From: Balanoglossus misakiensis
Taxonomy: Eukaryota; Animalia; Hemichordata
DNA: 64,000 nucleotides
Reading direction: 5' to 3'
Assembly: GCA_040954595.2 (NCBI GenBank)
Contig: CM082584.2
Location: 13,137,337-13,201,336 of the forward strand
Position numbers and translations under genes: made by a program. A model generated the notes under the pieces. The model had not been told where the DNA came from. It was given only the letters and a program-made list of their open reading frames with translations, and searched no databases. The stretch's first letter is position 1; every line of letters starts with the position of its first letter. Positions 36,445 through 63,000 of the stretch are shown piece by piece.

Positions 36445-36520
36445 ACATGGTCACACCATCAAATCACTGCAGTTAATAGTGGCCTGCAAAGCCAGCATGG
36501 TCCATGGCAATTTAAGCCGT

Positions 36521-36790
36521 TGGGTCTGTGTGAGCCAATACGAAGCCAGCATGGTCCGTGAAAGCCAATAAGAAACCAGCATGGTTAATATGAGCCAATA
36601 CGAAACCAGCGTGGTCTGTGTGAGCCAATACGAAGCCAGCATGGTCCGTGAAAGCCAATAAGAAACCAGCATGGTTAATATGAGCCAATACGAAACCAGC
36701 GTGGTCTGTGTGAGCCAATACGAAGCCAGCATGGTCCGTGAAAGGCAATAAGAATCAAGCATGGTTCGTATGAGCCAATACGAAGCCAGT
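36521..36790 (+). repeat. 30-bp minisatellite (~9 units) with 90-bp higher-order periodicity in the ATG10 3' UTR
   Basis: AGCCAATA recurs every 30 bp from 36533 to 36773 (AGGCAATA at 36743). Unit variants A/B/C repeat in the order ABCABCAB'. Confidence 0.92.
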
Positions 36791-37057
36791 GTGGAGTGAC
36801 CGTGATATTTTAAAACATTTGAGAGTCGTAACATTGAGATGGGAGTCTGCTACCTACCTATATGTCTTAATGTTCACCAGTGAGGGCATCCTTCACTTCT
36901 TCTGACAAGTACTCTATACCCAGAAAAGGAACAACTGCTTATTAGTAGTTTGAACAAGCCTCACACTCACCAAGTATCCAAAAGTATGTCTAGCTGTTAG
37001 TTCTATGCTTAGCTTCAGTTAATCCAAAGTCATCCTGATGTCTTGTCTTCTCCTTTC

Positions 37058-38508: not shown

Positions 38509-39095
38509 CTAAAAATATGTTATCTGATCTTCATCATCTGAAACCGATTCAAATGACGAATGTGACGTAGATGGGTCCATCATTCGGAGAGGGGTTTCTT
38601 CTGGTTGGGTATCTGCAGACTGCTCACTGGCACTACTTTCGATGTTCATACTTTTTGATCCCAAGAATGTTTCGAAAGTGGCCTCTTCTCCGTTGTCATC
38701 CAAAGCTGACGACTGTTCGACTTGAGTTTTGCCTAGGGTTATATCCTCCCCAAAGAATGATGTCAAGGTCTCTTCTGCATTCATTTCTTTTCCTTGTTCG
38801 CCTTCGACTTCTCCAGGTTCACGTTCCTCTGCCATTTGTGATACAGGTTCAGACTCTTGCTGGTGCTCAATTGCAGATTCTTGGGTCTCTTCTGCAGCTT
38901 TGTCACTTGTGTCCACCATTGAGCTCTCCCTACTGATCTGTATCCTGACTTCGCTGTGGTATTGCTTGCGTTGTGTCAACTTCACTGCAATCATTTTACC
39001 CATGGTGATACTGGATATGGATGGCCTGATGATCCTCAGTGTGGCGAGTAAGCGATGTTGGATTCCGGGCGACAACTGGATGATGACGTTGGTTT
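38509..39095 (-). CDS. Terminal exon: novel basic then acidic low-complexity tail ending DQITYF*
   Basis: Acceptor cacaacag| at 39096. The phase-1 entry matches the preceding exon and the frame of ORF 38509..39075. Glu/Ser-rich, with no resemblance to the ECM29 continuation. Confidence 0.8.
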
Positions 39096-42000
39096 CTGTT
39101 GTGAGGAAGACAACAAGAAAAGCTCACAAAAACCCTTTGTTGAAAAAATGCATTATTTAGGTCAGAATTATGGTTGATTGGGAGACAAATGTTCACACAC
39201 CCATACATAGATATATACACACACACCAGCACCTACACACACCACATTCAGATCGATATCACTTCCTACCTTCCCAGTGATTCACCATCTGAGTAACTGC
39301 ATGTTGTATATCTCCAAGACGTGACTGTAAGTACACACACAAATACAGTAACATTAGTATGCACATAAATTAATATGACCCACTACTGACATAGTTAGCA
39401 AGTCACAAATGATTAAAAAAATGCACAGGTTGTGAGTCAGGAACCCAATGTCCAGATCAGATGGTACTCATGGTCATCCTGCCCAAACTCAGTATATCAA
39501 CCTACATGATAACTTTATTCATCGGCAGCTTACCTCAATAGCTGGATGTGTTCTGAAGTTTGCAGTTAACACAAGTAGCCAGACACATATCGCCTGAAAT
39601 GAAATAAAAAACGAAAGATGAACACACTGAATTGCGGTACGGGATTACTAGCATGTTTCAAGTTACTAGCATATACAAATTTTCGGTGTAGGGGTGTATT
39701 TTATTTGATCAATCAAACTAAGACATGGTCTACGGTGTTTTTGTATGTTGCCTGTGTGAAAATATGGTGAAAGAAGTGGTTATTGATACCATCTAAAAGT
39801 GCTTGGAATAATTATTCTATACTCTACAAGACGGGATGGAGGAAGCTGTTATGTAAAGGATTTGGAAATACTACGTTTTAAGACTAAAATTAAAACACAA
39901 TTTTAATAAAAATACTATATTCAAAGAAATGACACACTAGATTGGATTAATACATTTAGTGTATGATCTCTTGAGACACAGTTAGAGGTGTTGATATTAG
40001 ACATAAAGTGGTGTTTTTTTAGGGGGGAGGGGTCAGCATGAGGAAGGTTCACATAAATCCTTGAAATTACCTCTTTCATGGTACCCATGGCCTGTTTCAT
40101 GTAACAAAAGACATATTTACTAAAATATTAGAATCTTAACCAAATGAAATTGCAAACAAACCACAGCACGCTACACTACAGGTTACATCTATAGTGATAA
40201 TTTACGCAAAAAGAACTTTAACTTGATGACCATGATGTTGTCGTTGATTTTTGGAGTGCCTTCTGAGCGTTGTATTTTTTCATTCTCCGTGTTTCTAGAA
40301 AAATGCTGAGCATGTTTTAAAGACAGAATGGTGCGAGTTGTCATGGTAATCTCCTTTAACTTTTTGCAAAGCACCGACAGGACTACATATTGGAAAGTGT
40401 GTTAGATGCTTGCATGGTTCAGAGGTAACATTTTCTATTTGATGTATTTTTGCGGACAGGTATGCTATTGAAAGAAAGTGACCATTTCAAAAATGGATTT
40501 CTTTCATTGAAATGGGTAAACTAATGCAAGATACATCACACAGTGCCAGGAATAAATTAACTGGTAAAATTTACACACAGTTTTATTAAATGCCTAGCGA
40601 ATTTGAAAACTGGCATGACGGTTGCGCTGGTGATGAAAAGTGGTGTGAGGGATCTTGCCCACAAAAGCTACAGCTGCTGTGATAGTGCGCGTAATTTACA
40701 AAACGGCAACGAAGCAACTTTGCCAGCATTGCCAGCGATGCTTGCACACTTTTCACAATACTTACTAAAAAGCTTTCACCCATGTCAAGTTCAATGTCCA
40801 CGAAGTCCTGATGTAACATAAATTTGACATTTAGCAAAATGCATCCAATCACAACACAGCACTGATAGCATTCGAACATGAAATATTGTCGTTACTCTTG
40901 TAAAAGAATTTGCGCTGGCTTCATTTTTTTTTGCAGTCGGGGCTTTGCTACGAAGGAGGTCATCATTCAGCTGACACATGACATACAAATTCAGACATAG
41001 AAACATGTGGTTGCCAGTATTTATATTAAACACCTACAACTGCCCTGTTATCAGCAACACCTGCTAGCATGCATGCATTTCATATTCTGAAGGATCAAAT
41101 GAAGGCTTCCAAAGAAAAAAACATGCCATACATGAGAAAGCACCAAGCATTTACTTATCCTTTCATTCAGTTGTAAAACCCATTTGTAGTAATTGTACAA
41201 GTAGCTGTGAAATTTAAATTACCTCCGTGTTATCAGCTGGTACATCATCCAGGTATTTTTCCAGCAGGAGATTCAGAATCCAGACCAGGTCTTCTCCATA
41301 GGGTTCGCGTGTTCCCCTGTCTTCCATGCGCACTTTCCATACATCTCCACCATGGGGCGAAAAGGGACCTTGGATTGCAGTGACCAGGGAATCACCGATG
41401 GAGAAGTGAAGTGCTATGTGTTCTGTTCTCGGCTGCACACGTATCTACGGACAAATGTATGTTTAATATGTTAAGTACATGTGTACAGGCACAGTTACCA
41501 TTCTAATATATTTGTTGAACATGTACCTTGTGATCCATGGCTGCTTTGGAAGCCTACCATAGGTCATGAAATTCTCTGTACAAAGTTTGGGAGCTGACTG
41601 TATAAAACTGCCCACATGGTAATTGATTATTGTGAACTTACTGTAGCGCTTTCCAAAAGTCCTTTGAGAACAATATTTCTGAATGGGTAATGGACATCTC
41701 CTATGGTTTGGAATGCCACAGCCTCAGCTGCTTTGGCCTTTTCCTACAGAGAAGGAAACAACATGCACTCAGATTGTGAGCCTCTGGATTGTTGGATAGC
41801 AAAACCAGTTCAGAATTTCAGCATTCGTTAGTTTCATAGGTCTCCAAAATAAACCACACACACCTCTATTGAGTCGTTTGCTGAAAGGACTTTCCCCATG
41901 ACTTTTTGTAGCACAGCCAGTCTTGTCATTTCCTCCACTTCTGTTTCTTCCTCACTTTTGGATACACCTTCAATTGCCTTCTCTTTCCCACCTTCTCCGT

Positions 42001-45000
42001 TGTTCAGAGGGAGTGGCCCATTTCTGCCGATCTCTCCAAGCGCTGTGCACGCCGCTTCAACCAGCATCACAACAACACTGTCCAACTTTGTCACTGAAAA
42101 TCAGACATTGGGAGAATTTTGTCAAGTCTACTGTCTAGCAAGATGTAATTATCTATCTGATAAGCTAAATGTTTGCAGGTAACTAACTCATTTGATTAGT
42201 CGGGCCACACAAAGTGCAACAACCTGTACCCAATATTACAACTTTACTGACCATCTTAGCTATTTTGTTTCTGGGGACAAAGCCTCCACGTTCATATTTG
42301 CTTCACATCACCTTGTTTCTCAACAATCTTGGTCAGCAGCTGAAGACTACAGCTGAAGGAAATATAGTCTACATACCGATGGCTTTAACGGCTTCCGTGA
42401 AGATAACATCCTCGTTGCTAGAATCACCAATATGTTCGATATTCTCGTGACTTGCAAGTCTTCTTCGCTTTTGGAGATACTTGCCGATGATGTGACCAAG
42501 TGCCAGTGTGGAACCATGTTGGACCTCCAGATGCTGTGTTGCAAAAATAATTGTCTGTCATTATTTGATTGCCTATCTGATGTGCATGATACCATAGCAA
42601 TACAGCTACATGTACTTCAACACCAAAGCGATATTTTGTCACTATTGGTCCTTGTTTGGGTACACTTACCTCATGGTTGAGGTCCTGTGTCATGTCGTGT
42701 ATTTCTGTGAGTAAGATATTCTTGTCCACATATTGCAGCAGGACACCGTAAAGTTCAGCAGCAAATCCTCGCATCTCCATGTTCTCTGAATGCAGGAATA
42801 CCTGGAGAACAGAAAACACACATGCTTTGTGTCATGGTCTAAAATATGCTCTTCATAAACATTTTCACTTAAACATCTACCATATACTTATTAAGTGCAT
42901 GTTGCTAGTCAGTGGCATAATTACCTGATACGGACATTTAAGCCAATATTATCAGCCTATTAAACAAAGCCCTACTGAAGACTCTGAAAACTTTTATCAA
43001 TGACAGAAGTATAGAATACTGTAGGTTAAAAGGGTTTTGCTGACCTTCAATCGACCAAAGCTGGAGATAAATTCCGGGGCGAGTCTGTCCGATGCCACAG
43101 CCACCAGCTCCAGGATTCTGTACATGGTAGCTGGTCCGCCGACAGCAGATACATACTGGCGCAACATTGCAGAGTAGAGTCCAATGGGACTCTCAGACGA
43201 ACTATCACCAAACTCCTCCAGAATTGCATTTACACGTTTGGATAGCAGAGGTCCCTGGAGTCGCATCTCTTCGGGAGTGGCCACGTTCGGGTTGACTCGC
43301 GATTCGTAGGCCAGGCACATGCGCAAGTAAATGGTCATCTGTGAAAGAGAGATACATTCTTAGAAAGGATATCATGCATGAACCGTTGAGTACCATGTTT
43401 AGCTGGATAGTCATGATCCAAATAAACCATTATGAACGATAATACATGTACACATCTCACCTTTTCGTATGCAGTCGGTGAAAATGGAATAGTGTGTGTC
43501 CCTAGTGGTCCACTAGCTTTGATTGTTTTCGTTGTAATTCTGTCTTTGGCCTGCAATGAGAAAATAAACACTTTCATCTAACTCAATATCATTATAAAAT
43601 CTATGCAAAATTCTAAAATTCATTTGATCTGGACAGGATGAATAGTTTCACCATTTAGTTTATATTGCTTACTCTCAGACTGATGAAAGTCACAAGGGAA
43701 ACAAAGTCTGGGAATAAATTGGCCTTTGCTTTGTCATCTGCCTTCAGGTTATCAGCTTTCTTGGCTTGGATTCGCAGAGCCTCCAGAGCTTGGGTCCGTA
43801 TAATCTTCACCCTATCAAGTAAACAAACATGCATGTGTAAATCCTGTGATCATGCATTTCCTATTATGACAGTTATAAACTGACACATGCATGTTAATGT
43901 ACACACAACTTACATTCATCATTATAATCTTTAGTGGTATAAGTAGCACTGTACTGGCCCAGAAGACCAGGCAAAATGGCCTTTTGTGACTTGCAAAACT
44001 GGGTTATTATTGATCGGCAGATAGTACTTACTCATCTCCAGAAGCAAGCAGCAAGGCATATTTGGATGGTACATGATTGGATGCAAAGACTGCAAAAGCA
44101 TATTGCACTGCCATCAGACGTGACTGGGGAAGTGGCTGAAAAAGAAAAATACAAATAGGCTTTAACCGCAGTTTGCATCACAGTATAATGTCTGTAAGGT
44201 TAGCATCAGATGGCCTGGAATCTGCCAATGTCTTTTACATATGGGCATGCACCAGCTTTGTTAAAGGAAAACAAGAAAGGTACACACCTTTTCAATGTTA
44301 CTCAGAATCAAATCTTCCAACAACGTCACTTGGTAGTCATTCCAGTTGGTGTAGTTATCGGCCAATACCGACAAACTCTCCAGAACATACTTCCTCATGT
44401 TTTCAGTCTAAAGATAAAACAAATGACACTTAGAACATCTCTCCACAGGTATTGCTGATACGGAAACAAAAATGAACTACGCTTTATAACATAATGGTTG
44501 CATACAAAAGGGAAATAAGAACAGTTACTGCCTGTGTCTTTGACAGACTTTGATGTGGTGCATCCTCCGTTGTGATCATGGCTAATTGATGTGGAGGAAA
44601 CCCCCGGTCTTTTACCTGTAATTCTGAACTCTTCTGCAAAATCGTGAGTCTATCTGTGAGTTCATAGAATGACGGGCGATGTTTCGGTTCCATGGCCCAA
44701 CACTTGCTCATCAAAAGGAACCTATTGAAGAAGAATGAGACAATGGTGTTAATTCTCTGACCTTGATGTTCTGGACAGGATCAACAGACTAAGAGAACGT
44801 TGGAGAACACTGTGTTCAAAAGGTAGACTGATTCCATAAGGTCCCATGGTATATATACATACCAAAACAGGACCTAAAAAGACTCTGCAATCAACACCAC
44901 TTCTATGAATCTGCATTGCAAGAAACCAGGTTAGACTTACAAATCTTCCGGGATGACAGATGGATTTTCAAGTCTATGTCCGGCTCGAATTGCAACCCTG

Positions 45001-48000
45001 AGTTCCTCAAGCTTTGTTTCTTCATACGGAATACGACCTGCGTGCGACATACAGTAAATATGTTAGAAATATGAGGAGCATACCAGCCATCTTTACAACA
45101 CATGTACCTCCAAATTTTCTGACTCAAAAACAGACCTATCCAAGGACAGAAATGTTGATAAATGACATACCAATTGTCGCTAACTCCCACAGAATTACAC
45201 CAAAGGACCACCTGTGAGAAGAAAAAGTGCAATGATTACAATCACACAAGATATACAAGTACTTTCTATGATAGAAATAAAATTAACAAAATCGATAAGA
45301 CTTCTATGACTAATTTATATTTTTTTGTACTTACACATTGCTTTTGCCCGTGTAGTTATTGTAAAAGAGTGATTCATGTGACATCCACCTGATGTCGTCT
45401 GGAGTCTACAAAAAAATCACAAAAATAGCATAAGTATGGTGGACATGTACAAAGAAGAGCATGTGCATCACTCTACGGTATCTGTAATATACACGTTGTG
45501 TGATAAATAGGTATTGCATGATAGAAAAAGCCATCTTACCTGTGACTCGCGAGGCAGTGATGCGTATCTACTCTCTTCCGGCAGGGGTACTGCAAAGTCT
45601 GTCACCCTGGCAACCAGGTTGGCACTGACGATCACATTCCTTGCGCCAAGATGGTGTTGAACACACTGTCAAACAAAATCCAGAATTTACTTTAATATGG
45701 ATGAATGTTTATGTAATGTTTAATATGTTTATTTACATGTACACCATTGTTCATCTTAACTTGGAAAATCATCCTAATACAGAGTAATTCATTATTTATT
45801 AAATGTTGTCATAGGGCCTAACCTGGGTGGAAATACCAGCACACAAGCAGGTCTGGCCACATTATTGCTCAGAGGAGTTTTATAAACACTGAAGAAAATG
45901 GTTGATATTCATACTCACTTTCAGCGAGGCCAGGTAACCCATGCCTTTGGAAATATCAATGGCAAAATCGTACAGTTGTGGCATCACCTGAAGAGCGACA
46001 TTGAACCCAGGCACCGACAGACGCACAGGGTCATGAAGACGATCTAGATTTCTGAGCCAAATGTCTAATCGAACATTTTCTGAATCATCATTTACGATCA
46101 TCACAGGACCTGTAACGCAGGAATGTAATTCTTTTCAGAAATCAAACTTGCAAATTTGTTATAGAATTGTTTACTGTTTAACATAAAAAGTACAGCAACC
46201 AACATCATTGAGAAAGGCCAAATGTTAACTATATTTGACAGAAAAGGTTGCAGTCTCTGATAATTCGAAATGCATTGATTCCTTACCATTGACTGAACAT
46301 GCTCCAACCAGATTCACAATATTTGTATGTTTACCGACTCGACTCAACACATCCAATTCTTGCTTCAGAAGTGTCTTGCCATCATCATCATCGTCATCTG
46401 GGAAGATTGTATGGGAGACACATTGCACAAAGACCAACAAAATGTTTGTTTCTTTGAAAGCCATGTAAGGCAGATGGGATTCAAGGTCAGTCTGCCTGGT
46501 TGTGAAGTTTTAGACAATAACCCCCCAAAATTACTCAGACCACAAAAGAACATTGATGATCCTCCTGACATCCTACCTTGTAACTTCTTCACTCCAACGT
46601 CTGCAACCTCACCAAATGATTCCACCTTTCCTTCCCAAAGTTCGTCTCTAAATTTGCCGGCCGCCAGAAGCCTGATGAGAACGAGTTTGTCTCTTGGGAT
46701 CTCCCACCACTGGGCCTTGGTCACATGGATGCTAACAGCTGTTTCATCCACTTCTGTTACAGGATGGCTCGGTTCAACTGAATATGGAATGTCGGCCTGT
46801 TCAAGACAGGAAAGATACCATTAAGACTTGAACTTTTCAAAATCTGGTACTGATATCAAAAAAGATTTTGAACACTTTTACACGAATCTTCACTATGCTG
46901 GAAAAGTACGGTATATTATAAAGCAAGAAATAAGAATGTAGCTTACTGCAAATTTGATATTAAGATAATTTATATCAGATACTCATAGTAGCTAGCATAC
47001 CTTCCTCGCCTCTTCTATTGTCAGGGCTTCTTTGTCGGCGGAATATTTCTTCTTACGGAGACATGCCACCATGCATAATATACAGCAAAGCAGTAACACA
47101 AACACTACTATCACTATAGCAACAATGAGGTAGAACCACCAACTGTCGACGGATAATACTGGTGCAGTCACTCCAACTTCTGCAAATTATCAAGAATGAA
47201 TTTTCTTGGTTTTTCTACGAATAGTAGGTTATTCTCAATATCATTATTAGGTGCACGAGTTTTACATTTGAACAATGAGAAAACGGGTCATCGTCTTTTT
47301 CATTTTTCCAGTGTGCAGCGACTATTTGAAACAGTGCATAGGCAGATGTTGCAGAAAGAACAATTTGCAAGTCAAAAATGGATAAATGGACCCCTTGACA
47401 AATTACCTGTTTCTGTTGTAAAAAGAACGAAAGGCGTGTACGTAATGGATCCTTCCACACCAACAATCTTCATCATCACAACATACTGGGAACCTGGGGT
47501 CAATTGAATCAGTTGTACAGATTCTGTGCCGACTGGCAGGAATGATGTCATAAGCCAGTCTTCATCGGCCGTCTTGTACTGAATGACATAGCCGTCAATG
47601 CCAGCGGTGTCGTTGAAATACCAAATTGCAGTAGCGGTCCTGTCCTTCACGGCGATGACTCTCAGTGAGAATGGCAAAGGAGGTACCAGAGCTGGAAGAG
47701 TTATGACTGTGATTAGTGCTATTTTCAACTGTTGATGCAAGATAGTCATGATATACTGTGGTTATCTTTCTCATTTTCTTGTGTGAACTTTGTTGCTTGA
47801 TTTCTACGGTGCCTGTAAATGGACCTCTGATCAGTTGAATAACCAAAAAAAAAACAAATAAATAAATAAATATGACTGATCAATACTGGTGCGCTGAAAG
47901 ACAGGAGCAAAAGAGAAGGACGATCAGTGTCCATGTGATTCTGCTGTGGTGTTGCCGCTAGCAAGGATTGTAGACTTTGTGTGATTGTGGCAAAGATTGC

Positions 48001-51000
48001 AATTCCAGTGAATTAATCAGCAAAGAAGCAACATGCATGGAACACTGCAATGCAGATGCATTTCTTCTGCATATATGGATTGGTGAGCTCAGGATTTGTC
48101 GTCTGCTGTCCTGGAAAGTCGTCTGCATTCGTTGGAATGGTGGAGACCATCCTGAATCGAGCTTGTTCTCATCATATCACTTTGCGCGTTTTGTTCTTCA
48201 CTTGGAAAGCAGCAGTTGCTTGTGTTGGTGCATTGTGATTGCTTGACTACTTCACGTCATACAAGCCACAATAAGACAAAGTTGTCAGATAACATGGCAA
48301 ACAAGACATGCATAGAGAGGGTGTTCGCTACAACATTTAGTGCCAGATACGGTAACTTCTTCTTGTGGAAGCCACACTATGCCACAGCAAACACTAGAGA
48401 AAGCAGCATGTGCATTGCATGTCAGAAAAGCCTTTTGAAGGATAGTCCAACTTCTGTTGAAATGAAGTCATAGAATTACCAACACGTAGATTAATTCACA
48501 AACCTAATGTTTCGAAGAAGTACGCTGGAGTCAAAGTAACCTCGTCTGAGTATTTGTGGAAGAATATTATACGGAAAATGTACTTGGCTTTGGGGTACAA
48601 ATCAGTCAGTAATGCACTTGTGTTTGGCATGGCCACATACGAGGAGTTGTGCCAAGTTTCGTTGGACGTCCGATACTGGACAATAGCACCGTCCGTTGTG
48701 AAGTTGCTAGTCAAGTCCCACTGGACGGTGGCTCTAGAACTAGTGATGTCTTTCACCCTGACATTATAGGGCGATGGTTCACCTATGGACACATAAAGTA
48801 TGTGATTTTCTCAATGAGAGAAGCTTTCGATGGAAATATGGTCGAAGAAAAATAACATGAGAAAGTGGCCAAAAGTTAGAGTCAATGGAGGAGCTTTAAA
48901 ATTATGGATACATTGTTGTCTGATGGCCTGGTACGTGAGTGAAACTACAAACCAGTCAACCTTATTAGATGCTATATTTTACATCATGAAATTGCATGTA
49001 ACTTTTTCTCAAGACTGGTAATGGCGACAGCATTACTGGGGCAGCCCTGACACTTTTAGCAGGGCAAAACTTTCCATAGTGTCTAACCTGTCGTCATGAA
49101 GTTGTAGAACGGCGAAACCGCAGTGCCTTGGTCTGTTGCAACAACCACCAAACGATATGTGTACGGAGTTCCCGGAAGCAGAGATGACAACGTCACGGAG
49201 TTGTTACCCACGGCAACAAAGGATGAGTCCATCCAATTATCACCATCATGGGTGTACTGCACCGTAACACCAGCAACATTGACATCGGCGTCAAGCTGCC
49301 ATAACACTGTGGCTGAATTGTCGGTTATATCAATAACTTTCACATCATATGGCAGAGGTAAACCTAAGGGACATAGGAGTTTATTAATGAAGTGAACCTG
49401 AAAAAAATATGCTCGTTATTGTGATCTCTCTCTCTCTCTCTCAAACCGTATGAAAACATCGAAACAATGTCCAATATAAACACATAATACGTTTATCAAC
49501 TTACTTTCTGTTTGCAGCACCTGTGGCTCACTCTCCCCAGTCCTTCCATCGACACCGACCACTACAACTCTGATTTCATAGCTAGTACCGGCTGATAAAC
49601 CCTCCAATACGAAGTTGTTGCTGTCAGGTGGAAGGACAGCAGCGTCAACCCAATCAGCATCAGGGTCATCAGATGGCCGGTACTGCACAATGACTGAATC
49701 CACACCTGTTGGATCCAGCGTAGGCCAGCTGATTGTGGCACCCCCGGGGCCGATGTCAGAAATTTCAATGTCACTAGGAACTGGCAGTGGTGATGGAGCT
49801 GAGTAAAAACAAACCATGAGATTTGTATTTGTGCACAGAATATAACCAAAGTTTAGGAAACAGGCCGACAAGTCAAGACCTTCAAATTGAGGTTTTTTAA
49901 AAATTTACAACAATAGTGCAACAGTTTTGATAGTTCACGGAAAGTATGAATAATTAAATACCAAAATACACGTAAAAAGAGGTGCAAGAAAAAATCACAG
50001 TAGTAATTGAGAGAAACAAAAATGTCTGAAACATTAATAGTGACAAGAAATTACCATTGGTTGTGAAATCTGTACTTTCGGTAAAATCTTCGTAGGCACC
50101 ATCGCTACTGACAACATAAAGACGAACATTATAAGGTGTTTCTGCAGTCAAGTTGACTATTTTGTGGGATGTTGTTGACGGATCCAGTGCGCTTGAATTT
50201 GACCAAGCAGGTTCAGCAGTGTCCCTAGCAACACGCTCTCTGTTTTCACGATACTGCACCATTAGGGATCCGACATTGGAATCATTGTCGAGTTTCCAGG
50301 TGAGCTCCACTGATTCGTCTGTCAGGCTTGCAATGGTGACGTTATACGGTAGAAGCATAGCTGGGGGGAAAGGAACAAATAGCAATCAGAGACAAGAATG
50401 GGTGAGAAATCACATCAGTGGATGTCAGAAGTAAACAAATTATGTCACATGCATTGATTAAAAATCTGTCTGAAGACACACTTACTGTTAGTAGTAAATG
50501 TAACAGGTTCTGTTTCGTCATACATGCCGGCAGTTCCAGCGATTATCTCCAGCTTGTAGGTGTAGTCGGTGTTCGGGGAAAGACCCTCTATGACGAAAGT
50601 ACCACCAGGGGCAGGTATGAAGGAGGACTTGACCCAGTCGTCAGCTGAACCAGTTTTCCTGTAATTCACCCGTGCACCTACGGTCTCGGCATCAGAGTCA
50701 AATGTCCATGTTAATGTTGCCGTGAAGGGTCGTGTTTGAACTTGTATGTGGCTTATAGATGGTACAACTGTGGATTGAAGAAAAATTTGTGAAGAAAAGA
50801 TTATTTCAAGGGATGACAAAACTCTGTAAGCTGGTGAAAAAATCATTGCACCAATCCCCAAACCAACTTCTTTTAAATCAGTGTCCTTTACAAAATGTTC
50901 TGTTTTTGCAAATCTGACACAATTGGTATTTCAATGAAATCAATTCCGAAAAATGGAGATGCCAAGATACCTGCTGTTCGGAACGATATTGTTTCACTGT

Positions 51001-54000
51001 GTGACGAGCTGTCATAATGTCCTTGTGTCAAGATCCTTACAAGGTAAGTAGAGTTGGGCGTGAAAATGTGGACAGAACCAAACCGAAGATTGCCGGCAAG
51101 CTCCGGGTTGTTACTCCATCCACTGCCATCGCCAGCAAGCTTGTACTGGATAACGATGCTTTGCACTCTGTTTTGTGGGTCCTCCAAGTCCCATGTAAAT
51201 TTGGCAGATGTTACTGTAATGTCCACTGCTTCAACATTGGTAGCTGTGGGCAAGGCTGCAAAACAGTATTTGAACAATGTTTTTTATAGATACACAACAC
51301 ACCTTTCTAACACACAACTTAAGGTGGATTTTACTGTGCAGGTTCTTGTTCAACTTCTCAAGGCATGACAATATGCTCAGAGCTTAGCTCATCAAAATGA
51401 AACACTGTGTATTCCTATGCTTGCGAACAAAAAACTTTAGCCCTGGAATATCTTACCCTGTAGAGTTGTCAAACTTGTTGTAGGTGAAATCCTCGAGTCT
51501 TCCCCATTCTGTGCAACAACCATTAAACGAACACTGTATTCTGTATTTGCCAATAAACCAGACAACTGTGCTGAATTGGTTGGTGGTACCACTGTCTTGT
51601 TCTGCCAGTTGTCATCACCATCAACCTTGTATTGGATGATGACAACAGAAACAAGATCTTCATCCTCAGGAATGGTCCATGATACGATGAAGCCCTCGTC
51701 TGTTACTTCCCCAAAATTTATTCCAACTGGTAATGGTACAGCTGAAAGGGGGAAAAACAAATATTCTCAATAGTTAATATCCAGATAAGAAAGTGTTGAT
51801 TTGTTCATTATGCTGACATCTTCCATAGACAGTTTGTTTCAACCTTAACAGAGGAAAACATATTTGTTGGTTTGACAGAAAGTACTTACCTTCAGTTGTG
51901 AGAACGCTTTCATCTGAATATTCCATCCTTCCATCTGTATGGATGGCCAATAACCGAACAGCATAATCCTCTTTGGCTGAGAGTCCACCAATAACAAATG
52001 ATGTCTCAGAGGGAGATAGAATTATTGAAGTGTTTGTCCAATCAGAACTACCGTCTGTTGGTTTGATCTGCACCACAAGTCCTGAGAGATCAGTATTATC
52101 ATCTAAGGACCATGTGACTGTTGCTTGTTTTGTAGTGATGTTAACAAACTCCAGGCTGTGAGGAATAGGAACACCTGCAGGAAGATAATCAGTATTTCCG
52201 GTTAAAACTGTAGTTCTTGCAATTTTCACAATATTTCTGTTTTGTGTTCTTCTTCAACATTCTAATGAAATCTTGATTCAAAGTTGCCATGTCTAGAAAA
52301 TTAAATCAATCCAGACCTGAATTCATTTGCCACAGAGAACAACTATTACAGAACATAATATCTTACCCTGTAGAGTTGTCAAACTTGTTGTAGGTGAAAT
52401 CCTCGAGTCCTCACCATTCTGTGCAACAACCATTAAACGAACACTGTATTCTGTATTTGCCAATAAACCAGACACCTGTGCTGAATTGGTTGGTGGTACC
52501 ACTGTCATGTTCTGCCACTTGTCATCACCATCAACCTTGTATTGGATGATGACAGCAGAAACAAGATCTTCATCCTCAGGAATGGTCCATGATACGATGA
52601 AGCCCTCGTCTGTTACTTCCCCAAAATTTATTCCAACTGGTAATGGTACAGCTGAAAGGGGGAAAAACAAATATTCTCAATAGTTAATATCCAGATAAGA
52701 AAGTGCATCTTCCATAGACAGTTTGTTTCAACCTTAACAGAAAAAAAAAACATTTGTTGGTTTGACAGAAAGTACTTACCTTCAGTTGTGAGAACGCTTT
52801 CATCTGAATATTCCATCCTTCCATCTGTATGGATGGCCAATAACCGAACAGCATAATCCTCTTTGGCTGAGAGTCCACCAATAACAAATGATGTCTCAGA
52901 GGGAGATAGAATTGTTGAAGCGTTTGTCCAATCAGCACTACCATCTGTTGGTTTGATCTGCACCACAAGTCCTGAGAGATCAGTATTATCATCTAAGGAC
53001 CAGGTGACTGTTGCTTGCTTTGTGGTGATGTTAACAAACTCCAGGCTATGAGGAACAGGAATAGCTGTAGGAAGAAAATCAGTCATTCTGCCATAACTGT
53101 TTGAATGTCACACTGTGGAATCTTGTTAATAGTTGCTAATCTGACAATGCTATTAAACAAACAATCAATGCACCATGCACTTATAGAGCCTCACACATAC
53201 CTGTTTGCGTGGCAAACGATATTATTGTAGAAACTCTCGCGTCATCGCCATCCTGACTTTGGATTACCAGACGGACATGATAGTCAGTATTGGGTTCGAG
53301 ATCACCCAAAACAACTGAGCTGTTGAAAGGTGAAACTGTTTCATTGGTCCAGTCACTATCTTCCCCGGTTTTGTACTGGAGAATTATTACCCCAATGAGG
53401 TCTCTATCCTCTGGTATTGTCCAAGAAATCGTTGCACTATCATCGCTCACGCCACTTACTGTAATATCACTTGGGAGGGGAACAGCTGAAATAAAAAATA
53501 TTAAATAAACAAATAAATACAGTAGGTATGATGAACACATGATATGAACACTAGATATTATCAGGAGAACAGATTGAAATTTATTAGCCATTTATGTGTT
53601 TGTATAAATCTCACCATATGTCACAAAGACAATCTCATCACTGCTTTCCTCACGAGATCCATCATCATTCCTCGAAATAAGTCTGACTGTATACTCTATT
53701 TTCGCAGAGAGTCCCACTATGGTGAATTCTGTGACGTCATTGTTGAGGTCTGAAGAGCTTATCCAGTTTCCAGTCCCTGTTTGCATGTACTGGACCGTTA
53801 TAGTGGACACTGATGATTCTGGTGGTAGTGTCCAAGTCAACGTGACTGCATTGGTAGTTTTGTTAACGATTGCAATGTCATGTGGTAACAGGAAAGCTGA
53901 AAAATATAACAAAGGAGAAAATAGTGGATATACGGTACATGAAGACTGCAGGACAACACGAATGGAATAAAGTAATATGTCAGTATGGCAAGCTTTACAA

Positions 54001-57000
54001 GTTTTTACAAATTTAACATGCACTCAAGTTTGAAATAAGGTTTAAGGCACCCTTTCCTCATTCAGTGGAAAGTTAATGTTTTTTACATACCAGGTGATGT
54101 TGAGAATGAATAGTCGTGTGACATCACCGTTGTTTTACCATCACTGCTCACTACAATGAAGTGGAAAGTGTAGTGTGTGTCTGGATCCAGGTTAGTCAAC
54201 GTGAGAGAGTTTGTATTCAGTGCCAAGGTGACGTTCTCCCATTGTCCATCTGCTGTCTTGTATCGCAACAGAAATTCTCCAAGCTGGTCCATATTTTCAA
54301 GAGTCCACAATATGGTGACACTGGTATCCGAGATGTCTTCGATGACAATATCTCCAGGCAATAGTAAATCTGTGTAGAAAATGCAAGCGTTGATAAGGCA
54401 TTTGTGATCCAACAAGTGTATAAAATATAAACATGTGGCAACTAAAATTGGCTCCAATATTGACAGAAGAATATCTCTACCTTTTGACGTCACAAAAGTG
54501 TACTGGGGTGTTGTTGTATTGTATGTAGCGTTCACTGATTCCACGACCAGTTGGAAGAAATATTGGGTGTCTGGTTCTAAATTAGATAACTGTACAGAGC
54601 TTGAATCCACCGACAAAGACATGGTCATCAGTTCTCCATCTTTTTTGTTATACTGGAGGACAATTTGGCCAATGAAGATCCTCTCCTCATCAGAGATGGT
54701 CCAAGAAATAAGTGCACCATTTGAAGATACGTCTGTGATGATGACATCTGATGGCATAGGCAGAGCTGGCAAAAATAATAGTAGATTGTCTTTTGAGAGA
54801 TGTGCTCCAATCAAAAACTATTACTAGACAGCAAGTGCGACAACCTAACTCTTGGAGACATTATTGCATTCAATAGATGTACCGCTATCATTAAGCTGAC
54901 TTCATAATCATAGATTGTTCACATTTTAACAATCCTCTGATTTCAACAGTGGTAAACATAGTTAGACAAAGACTTTTACCTCTTGCAGTTTCAAACACAA
55001 CTGGGTCAGTTGTCTGGGTGTCACTGCCATCTTCACTTATCACTACAACACGGATGGTGTATTCTTTGCTAGGTTCTAAATCTTGCAAGGTAACTGAAGT
55101 GTCATTAGGTGTGGCGGTCAGATTTGTCCACTCATTGGCATCGTCAGTTTTGTACTGTACAACAATACTGCCGATAGGGCCTCCCTCTTCTGGTATTGTC
55201 CAGGACACTGTGGCTCCATTGTCAGTGACGTCACTGATTAGCAGATCCGTTGGCGAAGGTACACCTGTTTGAGATAGCAATGGATAATTAAATAAATATT
55301 TTTTTTACAAGGACAGATTTATCTAAAATGTTGGTCATGCAACTTTTGTCTCCACAGTCCAATGGAGCTACCACACAAAGAGTCTCCAAGCAATGCATCT
55401 ATCTGACAATCCTCCTACATTATATTCATTGGATTGAGTGCACTAGGTGTGATACTCTAGCGTTTGACTTACCTGGTGAAGTTTCAAACGATATTGGTGT
55501 TGTTGATCGCCTGTCGACGCCGTCGGTGCTGACAATAATGAGAATGAGCATGTAGGTTTCACCCGAGGTCAAGCCGGTCAACGTCACAGAATTTCTTGGA
55601 TAGGGAACGTCTACAAACAACCACTGCATATCGCCACGCTTCTGGAATTCCACAGTTATGTAGCCTATATCTGTTTGGCCCTCGAAATCAATGAACCAGG
55701 ACACCCCGGCTGTCGTCGATGTTATATTGGTGATGGTCACTGACGTTGGTAAAGGAAGAACTTTAAAAAAGAGAAAACAGGAGAAGCATGAACATGACTT
55801 TGTCATCCAGACAGAACATAATAATGGATTCAAAGCGTACAAGACATGGGCTATTACAGGCTGTATGTGTACAAAGAAATGATTTCAAAAATATAAAACT
55901 GCGTTGCTTTGTTTTTTCTTCATATAATTGTGTGTACCACTACTTTAACAGATGTCAATAGTTTGGTGCGAATGAACATTAAGTTGAACACATTTGTCAA
56001 ACAATAATGGACCAATTGCAACAGTTACAAAAAGATATATATGGCAATTGAAAGTACAATGCACACAAGATAATGCAGGATGGATTTATCTTCTAAAATC
56101 AAGGTTTACTCTACAAGTAAAAGGGATACATAGCAATGCGAAGCACGCAAAGCAAGGATATGTTTACTACACGCAAAACATGAAATACACAACAAAGTAT
56201 AGCATTAATTACAAATATCAGGAAGATATTTCATAGAAAATTCATATAACTTACATGTTAACGTTATTACTAGAATAGCTGTTAGCAAGCAAAGTGGCAT
56301 ATACTTTTTTAAGTTGAAAAAGCAGACATGGAAAAAATCTGATAGATGTTAGGTAAAAGCCTGAAGTTAAAATGGTGACAAGCCATCTTAAAAGCAAAGA
56401 CAGTTATACATAAATCAGTTAATGTAAATAAACATACACTTAGTAAATAAATAATACATGTTACATTGTGCCTTGCACTTAATTGTTACTATTATGTTAC
56501 ATTTTCTATATCTAATATAAAATATGTAGTAAGGGGCGTCATCATGCCAACCTGAAGACGTTCTAAACGTTATCGGTTGTGATGTACTACTGTCATCACC
56601 ATCTGGACTCACAACCATCACACGGACAGTGTATTCTTGGGCTGAATTAAGATGCGAGAGCCTAACTGACTGAGTAGGAGGAGACACTGTCACATTCTCC
56701 CATTGGTCATCGTCACTTGACGTGTACCACACAATGATGTCTCCGATCATGCTGGTGTCTTCTGGGTTGATCCAAGATATAGTGGCAGTATAGTTGGTTA
56801 TCTGTGTGACCGTAATGTTGGTTGGTAATGGGAGAGGGGGCAATTCTAAAGGGGAAAGATAAAGGAACAACAATGAAATTCACTTTCAATATGAAGATCG
56901 ACATTGGTTCAAAGACACCTCTCTATTTCATTAAAATATTTTAGACGACAAACACCCCTTTCGACCATAATCTAAACAACTATTACTTTATTACAATTGC

Positions 57001-60000
57001 ACAATTACCTGCTTGGGTGATAAAGGTGATATTCTCTGTCGTACGCTGATGCAAGCCATCCTGACTGATTGTCTTGATATTAAACGTATATGTACTATCA
57101 GGAGCAAGTCTTGATAACGTCACTGAATTCTCATGCGGCTGCAATGACATACTTATGAAGTCATCATCACCCGACTTCATATACTGCAAGATAAGTTTGC
57201 TGACAAGTCCTTCATCTGGTAGAGTCCAGGCAATGGTGGCTGTTTCCTGTGTCACGTTCACTGTTACGTCGGTTGGTAGAGACACACCTATGAAACAAAA
57301 CAAATAGAAGATGTGTCATTGACAGTGATGAAAACTAATAGACCATTTTCCGAACTACATGAGGAACACAGCATATTGTCATGTCCAATTATACCATTAG
57401 AATTGTTCAAAGACACTTGTTCACTTCTAAGCGTCAGCTGTCAAACTTTGTTACTGTTTGGTATGAAATGATTGATAAATGCAGGTGTCATACACAAAAA
57501 TCAAGCTTACCATATGTTTCAAAAACAATGACATCTGTTGCCAAAAATCGTGTACCATTCTCCCATGATGTTAACAAACGTACATTGTATTCAATGCCAG
57601 GAGTGAGTTCTGTTAACGTAAAAGATCTCTCATCGCGCCCAACAAAAGAAATGTTTTGCCAAGGGGATCCCTCCGCTGTATATATGCTACTTGGAGCATC
57701 CGAGAGTTTGATTTGGACAACAGATCCATCAAGTGTTGAATTTTCATTCAACATCCATGTGAGCGTAGCCTCTCTGGTTGTGATGTTGATCACTTGCAGA
57801 TTCTCGGGTAATAATGGTTCTAGAAGGAGAAAATAATGAAGAATTAACATGTGAGATTCCAAATAACCTTTCATCATGACAGTTTTCAGAGATATACTGA
57901 TTGTTTATCACTGATTTTCATTACATGAAAAGTATGTAGAAAAAAACATGCCAGTACCTGACAAAGTCTGAAATTCATACACTGGTGTCTTGTCTGTTAT
58001 CTGATCACCTGCCCTAACGACTTCAAACTGAAATTGGTATGTCGTATCAGGTTCGAGGTCTGTCAGATCGATCACAGGCAACATGTTTTCTGGTATTGTT
58101 TCATTCCACCATGGCTCCAGATCTGCTTTCTCTCTCATCCAGAAGACAACTCTCCCGATGAGGTTAGGATCATCTACAAATCTCCATGATATTGCGGCAG
58201 AATCTTCCTCAATGTTGCTCACTCTGACATCAATTGGCAGAGGAACAGCTGTGAAATGTGAATGATAATCGCACAGAGATAAAAATCATGTATTGATAAA
58301 TTAGTAATATTGGATTGGTCAACTAATAGCTCAAGATATAGACTGGATGACATAAATATGTTCCTGAAAGACAGGACTTAAGAGTGGCAACATAAAACAA
58401 AATATGTGGGTTTGGCTTGCCTTTAGTGGTGAAGTACTGGGTCTCTGTATTTCCAATGAATCCAAAGTTGGTGTCTTCCAAAAGAAGTCTGTATCTGTAC
58501 GTAGTGAATACATCTAGATCAGTAATTCTGAGTTCTCCGACCTCTCGTGGGACTTTTGCCGTGGGATTCCAAACTTCAGTGTCAAAGCCACTCCTTGACG
58601 ATGCAGTTCCACTTTTAAAATATTCCACTGAAACATATGCTGTATTGTCGTAGTCTGTGCCAATCGACCATGCCACCAAGGATGTTGTAGCTGTTATCTC
58701 AATTGTATCAAAGGTTGTGTTCACTGAAAATAACAAACAAACGACTGTCAGAATTTAAAACAGTAAACACCATCATTCAAAAAATGTTGTATTAACCAAG
58801 ATAATAATCAAACTGCATGCCAAAAAAATAGGAACTCACAGTGCCAGTATTTCCTATATCATCAACGTGATCACTTACCCACTGGTGTTTGCGTTGTCAC
58901 TTGTGGAGTCGGCATGCTTACATTCATCACCTCTGAGACATCAGTTGTGACTTCTGTCTCTGACATTGTCACTACAGTAACAAGTGGTGTTGTGGTGCTT
59001 CCCCTTGTGGCATCTGTTTCATACGTTGCATTCCTGTCACTGGGAGTACTTGCAGTGATCATCGTCTCAGTCAGTAATTCCGATACCGGTGAAGTTTGGC
59101 TAATAGATGTATCCACCTGTGTCACATGGTCACGTGTTGTGCCCTGCTTGGTAGTTTCAAGTACTGCAGTCGTCATTTGTACAGAGGTTTTCATTGCAGT
59201 GGTGTTTACAGTTATTTCTGTTGATGAGACATCAGTTGCCAAAGATGATGTGGGGCTAGGCCCTGCAGTAACATCTGTTTTGTATGTTACATTCGTATCA
59301 ATTAGCGTACTTGCTGTGTACATCCTTTCAGTGAATAATTCTGATACAATTGAAGTTGTTCCAGTTGATACCATCCCTTCTGTTGTTTTATCATAAGTTG
59401 TGGTTCCCTGCACTGAAGTTGTTAAATCTTGTGGCATTTGTGTTGTTACATCTTGTGATGGGGGCAGACTGCCAGTTTCTGATGTCTGCATCCCCTCTGT
59501 TGTAAAACCAAGCGTTGTTGGTTGCGAAGTTGTTACAGGCCTTGTAATGGTCGATGGTGGCGGAGGGGGTGATGTCGGTGGTGGCAAAGACACAGTTGGT
59601 GTCGGAGTGCTTCTTGCTTCATCAGTAGTTTTTACAACTGTTGTCATTTGTACAGAGGTAGCTTCTTTTTCCGTGACGTCAGTAGTTATCTCTGTCTGTA
59701 TGGTTGCTACGTCAGTGGCCAATACTGTTGTTGGACTTGTCCTAGTAGCGTCTGTTTCATAGGTTACAGTTCTGTCACTTGGAGTACTTGATGTATATAT
59801 CCTTTCTGTCAGCTGTTCTGAGACGCTTGGAATAGGGGTAGAGAAAGCCTCTTCAGTACTTTCAACTTCTGTTACCATTTTCTCAGATGTAGATTCCATT
59901 TCTGTGATGTCTGTAGTTAATTCTGGTTGTGTTGTCAATACACTAGTGGCCACAGGTGTTTCTGATGTCTGCATCTTGTGTGTTGTAAATGTATGTGTTG

Positions 60001-63000
60001 TTTGTTGTGTTGTCGATATATCAGTGGTCAAAGATCCTGTAGGAACAGTCCCAATTCCATCTGTTTCTTGTATTGTTGTCCTATCACTTAGGGTACTTGC
60101 TGTGTACATCTTCTCTGTTAACAGTTCTGACGCAACTGAAGTTGATATCAGATCTTCTGTTGTTTTATCATAAATTGTGGTCAGCTGCTCTGTTGTTACA
60201 CCTTGTGATGTTGGTTGACTGCCAGTTTCTGATGTCTGCATCTCCTGTGTTGTTAAAACAAGCGTTGTTGGTTGCGGAGTTGTTACTGGCCTTGTAATGG
60301 TTGACGGTGGCGGAGGGGGTGATGACGGTGGTGGTGGAGGTGGTGGTAAAGACACTGTTGGCCTTGGGGTAGTGCTCGCCCCTTCAGTTGTTCCAACTAC
60401 TGTTGTCATTTTTACAGTTGTTTCCATTTCTGTGATGTCTGTAGTTAATTCTGGTTGTGTTGTTGATACATCAGTGGTCAAAGATCCTGTAGGAGCAGTC
60501 CCAATTCCATCTGTTTCTTGTATTGTTGTCCTGTCACTAAGTGTACTTGCTGTATACATCCTCTCTGTTAACAGTTCTGACGCAACTGAAGTTGATCTGG
60601 TCGATATCATATCTTCTGTTGTTTTATCATAAACTGTGGTCAGCTTCTCTGATGTTCCTACATCTTGTGATGTGGACTCCTGTGTTGTAAACACACGCGT
60701 TGTTGGTTGCGGAGTTGTTACGGGCCTTGTAATGGTTGATGGTGGCGGAGGGGGTGATGACGGTGGTGGTGGAGGTGGTGGTAAAGATACAGTTGGCGTC
60801 GGGGTGCTCCTTGCTTCATCAGTAGTTTTTACAACTGTTGTCATTTGTACAGAGGTAGTTTCTTTTTCCGTGACGTCAGTAGTTATCTCTGTCTGTATGG
60901 TTGCTACGTCAGTGGCCGATACTGTCGTGGAACCAGTCTTAGTAGCATCTGTTTCATAGGTTACAGTTCTGTCACTTGGAGTACTTGATGTATACATCCT
61001 TTCTGTCAGTTGCTCTGACACATCTGATATATCCCCTTCTGTCGTTTCATCATAACCAGTTGTAGTGAGTTTCTGTGTAGTTTGTACTGCTGTTACGGTT
61101 CTGTCAGTGGTTGGTTGAGGTTGGACAGAAGTACTGGATGCAGAGACTGTGCTTACTTCATCAGCAGTTTTATTCGTTCTCATGACTCCAGTTGTTGATT
61201 GTGGTAAAGTAACAGATGTAGTTATCTGGGGGCCAGTTGTTGTTTCTGATTCTTCAGTGGTCCTCATTGATGTTGTTTGGTATTTTGTTGCTGGATGTGT
61301 GACTGTTTCTGTTGTCTCCATTAGAGATGGTGTATATGTGTCTGTTGCTTGCTCAGTTGCTGTTCTAACTGGTGTTTCAGTTGGTTGCTCTTCAGATGTA
61401 AACAGACCAGTCACCATTGAAGAAGTTCTCTGTGCAGTTGTCTCTTTGACAGTGGTGGCCTCTTGAGTTGCTCTGTCATCAGGTGTACTTTGATCTGGAG
61501 CTGAGGTTGTTGGATAGTTTGTCACGAAGGGTGTGGATTCAAGTAATGTTGTGACTGGCTTTTGTGATGTTGTTGGCTCTAAAGTGGTTTTTGATGTAGT
61601 TGTTCCTGTTGGTGTTGTTGTAATCATTGGTTGCTGTGATGATGATGTTGACGGTGGTAATGACGAATCAGCCTTTGCTTCAGTTGTCAATACGCTGGTT
61701 CTAACATCTGTTGTTTGTTGCTGAGATGTTGTTTGTGACTCGCCAAGAGTGGTAACAAGCAATGTTGTCTCTGCAGCACTGGTGGATCCTGTCTGTGTTG
61801 TCAAACCAGCTGTTGTTACTGCTTGCGTAGTTTTCATCATTGTTGAAGGAGGCTGTTTTGGTACAGTAACCGTTGTTGGTTGTGGCGGTGGTGTTGACGA
61901 TGTTGAAGTTTCTGGGACTGGAACAGTCGTCATGCCGATGCTACTCACATATTCGGTTGTTTGTCTTTGAGATGTGGTTGTTTCCTTTGGAACAATTGTT
62001 GTGGGCTTTGTTTCCCCTACTGTTGTGTGAGTGGCTGTAGTTTCTTGCTCTGTCAAAGATGCAGTAGACAGTTTGTCTGTTGTATGTATTGTTGATGGTT
62101 GATACTTCTGACTTGTCATGACATCGGGTGTGCCTAATTTAGTTGTTGCCACTGTTGCAGGTCTTGTCTTGGTCAACATAGATGTTTCGGGTGTTGTGAC
62201 AATTTGTGGCTTTGTTGTTATAGGTATCCCACTGCTTACACTTGTGTATGTTGATGGTAGTGAGGTCTGCGGCACATGAGTTGTGATTGGAACTTGGCTG
62301 GTTTTATCAACTGTTGATTCTTCACGTTCAGAAGTAGTGGACAATGTTGTCTTAGGTTGTGTTCTCATCAAAGTGGAAGAACTAGGTTTTGTGGTCATGG
62401 AAGCACTGGAGGTTTCTGCTATTGTGGTCGCGGGTTGAGTATATATTCCCGTCGATTTTTGTACCTCGGGTGTAGATGAAAGAGATGTGGCAGAGGTAGT
62501 GAGTGGTTCTTGTGAAGTCTCCACAACAGTAGACTTCTCCTTGGTTACAGGCTGTGTTACTGTTGTTGAGTGGGTTGGTGTTACAGATGTCAACTTAGAT
62601 GTGAGCGTTGTATCAAAGCCACTTGGTGACTGACTAGCGGAGGATGGTTGCTCAGATGACGTTGAAGATGTTGTTGCCCGCACAGTTGTAGTTGTTGCTT
62701 CTGATGTAGTCACTGGCATGCGTGTAGTACCTTCAGGTTTAGTTTCTTCAGGTGTTTTTTGAGATGGTGTCATTACTGAAGTCTTTCCAATCACTGTTGT
62801 TTTTGCTGGTGTTTCAGTAGTTGTACGTTCTTGTTCTAAGCTTGTCAGTGGTGCAGTAGTAGCCTCTATTGCTGTTGATCTCGCGGCAGTTGTTTCTCCA
62901 GATTCTGTTGATTTCAGTGGTTCATCAGTAGTCAGTTTTTCTGTTACTACAGTTGTAGCGACTTTGGTTGTTTGTTTACTTTCTGTTGTCTGCTGCATTG

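Follow-up and report, generated by a model that had tools for sequence, protein, structure and literature searches.

A predicted receptor pseudokinase gene carrying an internal segment of the proteasome adaptor ECM29 in Balanoglossus misakiensis

The receptor gene and its junction with ECM29

The window described here is the whole stretch of DNA analysed, 64,000 nucleotides of contig CM082584.2 in the assembly GCA_040954595.2 of the hemichordate Balanoglossus misakiensis (positions 13,137,337 to 13,201,336, forward strand). It carries a minus-strand gene for a predicted receptor in which a receptor tyrosine kinase (RTK)-type kinase, likely inactive, is followed in frame by an internal piece of the proteasome adaptor ECM29. 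Spliced in full, the model comprises 46 exons and 4851 residues and is free of internal stops, one GC donor being assumed. In order, it encodes a mucin stalk, FN3-type domains on 22 exons, a membrane-spanning helix and a pseudokinase of RTK type, followed by 12 ECM29 exons with a 42-nt exon among them and an acidic tail (Table 1). The 5' end of the gene lies outside the window, as do the exons upstream of 63633 and any signal peptide.

A first-pass annotation, made from the sequence alone, had ended the gene at 47179, the start of the transmembrane (TM) exon. This extent was not borne out; the gene runs on through the 22 FN3-type exons and the mucin exon to 63633. Rebuilt by coordinates and without the 42-nt exon, the part from the TM exon (47179) to the stop (38509) consists of 22 exons joined by 21 GT-AG introns in a single open frame of 1143 residues.

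The junction between kinase and ECM29 lies where it had first been placed, with a donor at 44616, a phase-0 intron of 208 bp and an acceptor at 44407. Position 44529 likewise holds the alternative phase-0 donor, and 44486-44484 the read-through stop. Scored with weight matrices from the gene's own other introns, the donor reaches 6.6 bits and is better than 15 of 44 donors, while the acceptor is better than 17 of 44; the intron length is ordinary for this gene (median 186 bp). The linker from the RP motif of the kinase to the junction is 21 residues long, without a gap, in all three species in which the fusion was found. Use of the alternative donor is disfavoured both by this linker length in orthologues and by its splice score of 2.4 bits, against 6.6 for donor 44616.

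The annotation had also seen no poly(A) signal between the kinase and the ECM29 part, and this is confirmed in that AATAAA is absent from the junction intron; one TATAAA variant lies at 44488. Reading through donor 44616 stays open for 43 codons, to a stop that the variant overlaps, and the donor itself ranks in the lower half of the gene's donors. These features would suit a gene whose main product stops at the read-through codon (44484) and so has the kinase without the ECM29 part, with the fusion as a minor isoform. Such a product is nevertheless very improbable, given the missing AATAAA, the use of the junction by both orthologous models, and the strong conservation of a downstream part that has no conserved start methionine. 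The methionine found right after the junction in the window is not conserved in the orthologues, so the ECM29 part has no common start of its own.

Table 1. Parts of the receptor gene, in positions of the window
Feature	Position	Strand	Basis and remarks
Mucin-like single exon	58880..63633	minus	4.75 kb, ~1584 aa; 29% Thr, 11% Ser, 9% Pro
22 phase-1/1 exons, each one FN3-type domain	47407..58723	minus	20/22 match Pfam fn3 at E<=1e-4; open frame
TM exon: one hydrophobic membrane-spanning stretch, Cys cluster, basic stop-transfer motif	47001..47179	minus	By eye; aligns with Diadema TM
Juxtamembrane part and RTK-type pseudokinase, 8 exons	44616..46796	minus	Motifs, Pfam, alignment to Diadema kinase
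Junction intron, phase 0, 208 bp	44408..44615	minus	Splice-site scoring
ECM29-derived exons 1-10 (end of ECM29_N, whole ARM_ECM29)	41223..44407	minus	Pfam, canonical-only hidden Markov model
Added 42-nt acidic exon, phase 0/0, not ECM29	40766..40807	minus	Saccoglossus has a 14-residue insertion at the equivalent place; Diadema is without it
ECM29-derived exons 11-12 (39593-39534, 39324-39270)	39270..39593	minus	Canonical-only hidden Markov model
Terminal exon with a conserved start (capping helix predicted), an acidic linker of low complexity and T-x-F before the stop	38509..39095	minus	Orthologue alignment, fold model

Orthologues in Saccoglossus and Diadema

The same arrangement has been found in predicted proteins of two further species. 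A HMMER search with a 98-residue exon against 1.84 billion representatives gave 18 matches, the best of which (62%) was Saccoglossus kowalevskii XP_006820085.1, a partial entry named ECM29-like. This protein starts with the last kinase exon, joined to ECM29 sequence at the position seen in the window model, with 56% identity over 721 columns. Searching longer proteins with the Saccoglossus sequence returned 304 matches, and among the 120 listed the best was a protein of 3645 residues from Diadema antillarum in which FN3, tyrosine kinase and ARM_ECM29 domains are combined; it ranked ahead of every full-length ECM29. Its alignment with the window model is unbroken from the TM helix, across the kinase, to where the ECM29 piece ends (34.5% over 993 columns). 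The Diadema entries XP_071510669.1 and XP_071509929.1, on different scaffolds, are identical across their last 1006 residues. Within the ECM29 part, the window is 59% identical to Saccoglossus and 34% to Diadema.

On sequence grounds, XP_006820085.1, XP_071510669.1 and XP_071509929.1 are orthologues of the window gene by junction, tree and tail. They are named ECM29-like or uncharacterized, and none is named or described as a fusion. The kinase and ECM29 architecture, which the annotation had suggested seeking in relatives, was found there by protein searches. All three joins are predictions, which leaves room for an artefact: a misassembly, or a separate truncated ECM29 duplicate beside an unrelated kinase gene, joined by prediction software. 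This is extremely unlikely, because independent assemblies from three species in two phyla have equal adjacency and linker length, N-terminal ECM29 exons are missing, the match setting in at the junction itself, and the copies share new features within a single clade. From the predicted gene models, we hold it very probable that the fusion is a real gene product. What had been proposed, an RTK-type receptor joined in frame to an ECM29 piece, stands as regards the open spliceable frame and the orthologue models; splicing across the junction is a prediction.

The Diadema cytoplasmic part, used as query among proteins of 2004-6379 aa, retrieved itself and two fish kinases (3 of 3987 candidates), which is weak evidence of absence. 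A word-based search with the 98-aa exon found none among 117 candidates, and a metagenome scan yielded 31 pattern matches, none confirmed. Two unnamed short proteins from the 98-residue-exon search carry, by eye, some of the residues fixed in the fused clade and may be exons of a further family member.

The pseudokinase

The layout is that of the RTK superfamily, with an ectodomain, one TM helix (by eye and alignment) and a PTK-type kinase. Pfam PK_Tyr_Ser-Thr matches four of six kinase exons scanned, weakly, the exons being short, and the kinase is identical to that of Diadema at 108 of 278 positions. The best single-domain Protein Data Bank matches of the Diadema kinase are FGFR1, Tie2 and VEGFR2, with similar scores of about 125-133 bits. 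To our knowledge, a mucin/FN3 ectodomain fits none of the FGFR, Tie and VEGFR families.

The motif set of an active RTK (HRD Asp, DFG, glycine-rich loop) is not present. In the window HRD has become QHH and DFG has become DFA, while Diadema has HHS and DFK, and the glycine loop is degenerate in both. The catalytic Asp has therefore been lost in both kinases seen whole, differently in each, and from this motif loss the kinase is likely inactive. The beta3 Lys, the alphaC Glu, the catalytic-loop Asn and the DFG Asp are retained in both, so nucleotide binding may still be possible.

The ECM29-derived segment and its predicted fold

Of 11 exons scanned from the ECM29 part, five match Pfam ECM29_N or ARM_ECM29, at E values between 6.8e-16 and 0.11. 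The segment aligns to ECM29, as first thought: a canonical-only hidden Markov model (HMM) of 18 canonical proteins matches it with E 7e-125 over residues 382-960 of the window model. In mammalian ECM29 numbering the captured span corresponds to about residues 452-999. HEAT_ECM29 and ARM_ECM29_C are absent from the fused orthologues by Pfam. The gene does not have the full-length soluble form of ECM29 (~1850 aa, with N- and C-terminal HEAT blocks); TM and kinase exons precede the piece.

In that numbering of the window model the junction falls at residue 381 and the last exon begins at 963, so that the match starts one residue after the junction and ends three before the last exon. Both breakpoints therefore lie at introns or within a few codons of them, which fits exon shuffling as a probable route. 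The 12 ECM29 exons described in the first-pass annotation are all in one frame, as stated there, but a 42-nt exon (40807-40766) inside a 1.6-kb intron had been overlooked; it has good splice sites and was found via orthologue alignment. The terminal exon, previously called unrelated to ECM29, is indeed not detectably ECM29, though its start is conserved among orthologues. A diverged ECM29 exon was considered for it and is unsupported, the HMM alignment stopping three residues short and the envelope reaching six residues in.

All three fused proteins end in an acidic patch followed by a C-terminal T-x-F or T-x-L. Such a T-x-hydrophobic tail may, by its motif, be a class I PDZ ligand. An [ST]-x-[VLIF] C-terminus occurs in none of 121 canonical ECM29 proteins, many of which are close vertebrate relatives.

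The fused copies are 30-35% identical to canonical ECM29, against 44-51% among canonical orthologues. Of 116 residues invariant in canonical proteins, 48 are retained in all three. A test of core versus surface retention in the window copy alone was not significant (p 0.09).

For the Saccoglossus piece, AlphaFold2 (AF2) run with 36 relatives in the alignment predicts a solenoid made almost wholly of helices (pLDDT 77.9, pTM 0.77). The model's Foldseek matches are generic HEAT proteins with importin-beta, PP2A-A and CAND1-type folds, and a HEAT solenoid is accordingly the predicted fold of this orthologue. In the AF2 model the last kinase helix and the first ECM29 helix are continuous, forming a single helix, and a further helix arises from the start of the last exon. 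A sequence search of the Protein Data Bank matched no ECM29 entry.

Origin and age of the fusion

A tree of 17 rows was built, with 16 proteins hand-picked from the matches for spread; three rows are fused (the window counted among them) and 13 are canonical by name. The three fused pieces form one clade with 100/100 support and a stem of 1.02, apart from full-length ECM29. Separate origins, with window and Saccoglossus grouped with Ptychodera ECM29 without Diadema, are rejected by the approximately unbiased test (p-AU 1.9e-5). The fused copies share 24 fixed positions that are absent from all 13 canonical rows, plus two common insertions. Long branches could draw these copies together, yet the 24 positions, the insertions and the junction are also held in common.

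A search for a separate full-length ECM29 had been suggested, and one was found in Ptychodera (1885 residues), so the fused piece is a duplicate at least in hemichordates. The proposal of a DNA-level, intron-containing partial duplicate is upheld by intron positions common to the fused copy and canonical ECM29, which imply copying at the DNA level and rule out a retrocopy. In 134 alignments of canonical models in the region there were six internal gaps of at least 10 residues, two matching window exons and four outside the captured span. One of the two is a Tegillarca canonical model without ~41 residues that equal the first captured exon, its boundary within one codon; the other is a B. floridae canonical model without exactly the 20-residue exon. 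Unnamed single-exon fragments also start or end at window exon boundaries. Separately, five unnamed ECM29 fragments cease matching midway through a 294-nt exon; some lineages may therefore have an additional intron there, absent from the fused copy.

The earlier view of an old, selected fusion is strengthened by the junction in Saccoglossus and Diadema and by the single clade, and the fusion appears much older than could first be told. It likely predates the split between echinoderms and hemichordates, as far as sequence comparison can date it. This split is more than 500 million years old. We have high confidence in an origin in which a genomic copy of 12 ECM29 exons recombined, before the split, into the phase-0 intron that followed the final kinase exon in a mucin/FN3 RTK, with fast evolution followed by purifying selection. 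That the fusion is real, single in origin and ancient is very likely. The idea at the core of the first-pass annotation, an ECM29 duplicate serving as the cytoplasmic part of a kinase-dead receptor, is supported by the junction found in both other species, the single clade, the common intron positions and the separate full-length ECM29 of a hemichordate, and would hold for these predicted proteins.

Relation to known proteins

The fused copy resembles ECM29/ECPAS by homology over ~570 residues, by common intron positions and by a predicted HEAT solenoid. It differs in lacking ~450 residues at the N-terminus and ~850 at the C-terminus, among them most of the contacts cross-linked to the proteasome, in being membrane-anchored and in having much longer branches.

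Receptor tyrosine pseudokinases include PTK7/CCK4, ROR1/2, RYK, ErbB3 and EphA10/B6. The window gene is like them a single-pass receptor with an RTK-type kinase fold whose catalytic residues are lost, but it has a mucin and FN3 ectodomain and a kinase closest to the FGFR/Tie/VEGFR group. We know of no receptor tyrosine pseudokinase with a 570-residue HEAT domain after the kinase. A holozoan kinome paper mentions CCK4 in the part covered, and its main text mentions neither ECM29 nor HEAT (PMC8662651). No description of a kinase-ECM29 fusion was found in the full-text literature; subscription papers, including a sea urchin kinome survey, lie outside the scope of that search. A receptor pseudokinase with this output domain was not found described before, and it is likely an ancient, undescribed receptor type.

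Proteins in which a pseudokinase is followed by helical repeats are also known from SCYL1/2/3 (PMC4774220) and ULK4 (PMC10721220), and SCYL1 shares a tail with a short C-terminal binding motif. The parts of these sources covered propose them as trafficking or signalling scaffolds. They are not transmembrane receptors, whereas the window gene has a TM exon, an RTK-type kinase and ECM29 repeats, so homology does not hold and the likeness is convergent. An SCYL1-like cluster was a weak Atlas lead (score 0.80).

If this reading holds, an RTK-type pseudokinase took its output domain from a housekeeping proteasome adaptor and kept it in two phyla, and the pseudokinase-plus-HEAT layout of SCYL/ULK4 arose again on a surface receptor. 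As a case of exon shuffling the gene would be well preserved, its two breakpoints still readable at introns, and it would serve as a natural deletion construct for what the central third of ECM29 does. Embryos can be worked with in both Saccoglossus and sea urchins, where the receptor and its partners could be located.

Proposed function

The reading we lean towards, by a modest degree, is that one gene encodes a very large single-pass receptor in which a likely inactive kinase, joined to the ECM29 HEAT solenoid, serves without catalysis as a scaffold on which trafficking or cortical partners dock. The mucin/FN3 stalk would sense contact or load at the cell surface. The last kinase helix would continue into the first HEAT helix, by which the pseudokinase could hold or orient the solenoid. 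The solenoid might then bind trafficking or cytoskeletal adaptors, like the SCYL pseudokinase-HEAT proteins, while the T-x-hydrophobic tail may bind a PDZ scaffold and any proteasome contact would be residual. Taken as a whole, the chain from stalk to PDZ tail has about even chances of being right.

Among human in-cell cross-links (PMC12663562, rows seen), seven of eight unique ECM29-proteasome links lie outside the captured span, at K67, K156, K285 (two), K336, K1217 and K1324; the single link inside it is K694-Rpn1, with one spectrum of 175. In yeast (PMC8214149), most cross-links lie at the two ends, and four rows fall at K519-K650 among the first 30 of 89 places, in yeast numbering that is not placed on the span. 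Since only one of the eight human links is in the captured span, an SCYL-like docking scaffold is likelier than a proteasome tether.

A tether is the strongest competitor all the same: in the same fused gene, the ECM29 piece would still bind the 19S particle, allowing the receptor to hold proteasomes at the membrane or regulate them there. Such a role could draw on the K694-Rpn1 link, on yeast K613-Rpn1 (two rows), K650-Rpt1 and K519-Rpt5 among those first 30 of 89 places, and on the 48 invariant residues retained in all three copies. In the parts of these sources covered, the ECM29 N-terminal region pulls down Rpt1 (PMC7041676) and a docking model sets the N-terminal shank on Rpn1/Rpn10 (bioRxiv 2022.06.06.495046). 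Yet seven of eight unique links and 174 of 175 spectra sit at residues 67-336 or 1217-1324, which were left behind, and the authors of the human cross-links modelled Rpt5 on ECM29 1-540 (PMC12663562, part covered). The fused copy has also fallen to 30-35% identity, where canonical orthologues keep 44-51%. We consider a tether unlikely. The first-pass annotation had suggested coupling to proteasome or endosomal machinery; its proteasome part is weakly supported, with seven of eight human links outside the span and a copy at about 33% identity to ECM29. Going further, an echinoderm and hemichordate receptor class with a mucin-stalk sensor and a dead kinase rigidly joined to the ECM29 solenoid, which recruits or remodels 26S proteasomes at the membrane, is likewise unlikely, and would, if true, mean surface-to-proteasome signalling without phosphorylation.

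Alternatively, the HEAT part may act inside the receptor, as a pseudokinase clamp, an oligomerisation surface or a spacer, with the tail as sole output. The invariant linker length and the predicted continuous helix suit this, and the HEAT repeats of SCYL1 mediate homo-oligomerisation according to the part of PMC4774220 covered. Against it, the window and Saccoglossus are 59% identical throughout the ~570 retained residues, beyond what a spacer needs, and we rate an internal role as quite unlikely. Identity to ECM29 is 30-35% yet reaches 59% between window and Saccoglossus, a pattern that fits a new constrained role, and the docking scaffold is preferred accordingly.

Several points weigh against this account. 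The orthologue database models are computational predictions, and only two further species were found with the fusion. The junction helix has pLDDT 59-81 in one model, whose alignment included ECM29's own preceding helix and so carries a bias; a second model, including the whole Diadema kinase, left the kinase unfolded and the junction below 50. Canonical-invariant hydrophobic and charged residues are kept equally in all three copies (34/78 vs 10/23, p=1.0). In the tree the fused copies branch outside the deuterostome ECM29 proteins as a whole, and grouping them with Ptychodera ECM29 is rejected (p-AU 0.0185), which implies either an older duplication or long-branch pull. No echinoderm canonical ECM29 is named among the matches listed (120 of 304), which makes the placing of the fused clade uncertain. 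As a PDZ ligand the tail is putative, judged by motif. Binding of ankyrin G, Arp1, KIF5B and Rpt1 is assigned to the ECM29 N-terminal region (PMC7041676, part covered), and these sites may fall outside the captured span.

The ectodomain and the rest of the window

At the first FN3-type exon (58421, minus strand), the frame would be kept only with a GC donor. The stretches 53064-52367 and 52174-51457 (minus strand) are a recent tandem duplication of a pair of FN3 exons, the exons being 96% and 98% identical and the inner intron 97%; the ectodomain is still growing. The mucin exon (58880-63633, minus strand) contains internal repeats, including duplicated proline-rich blocks, with 112 repeated 30-mers. 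In the TM exon (47001-47179, minus strand), four Cys at the inner end of the helix are possible palmitoylation sites by eye; none were seen in Diadema. The Diadema ectodomain has EGF repeats, mucin, a SEA-like stretch (by eye) and one FN3 domain, against 22 here. Its SEA-like stretch, at about residues 2310-2430 and before the EGF and FN3 domains by eye, has no Pfam call and carries a GSII motif, presumably SEA-type.

In the remainder of the window (1-37000), none of 43 hand-picked open reading frames (ORFs), drawn from both strands, matched Pfam at 0.01. A plus-strand ORF at 24750-25151 looks protein-like and had no match. Convergent with the receptor gene, a plus-strand gene (34900-36500) has ATG10/ATG3-family (Autophagy_act_C) exons at 35234-35407 and 35811-36032. 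Near the 3' part of this ATG10-like gene, at 36523-36794, lies a 30-bp tandem repeat in three near-identical 90-bp units, open on both strands.

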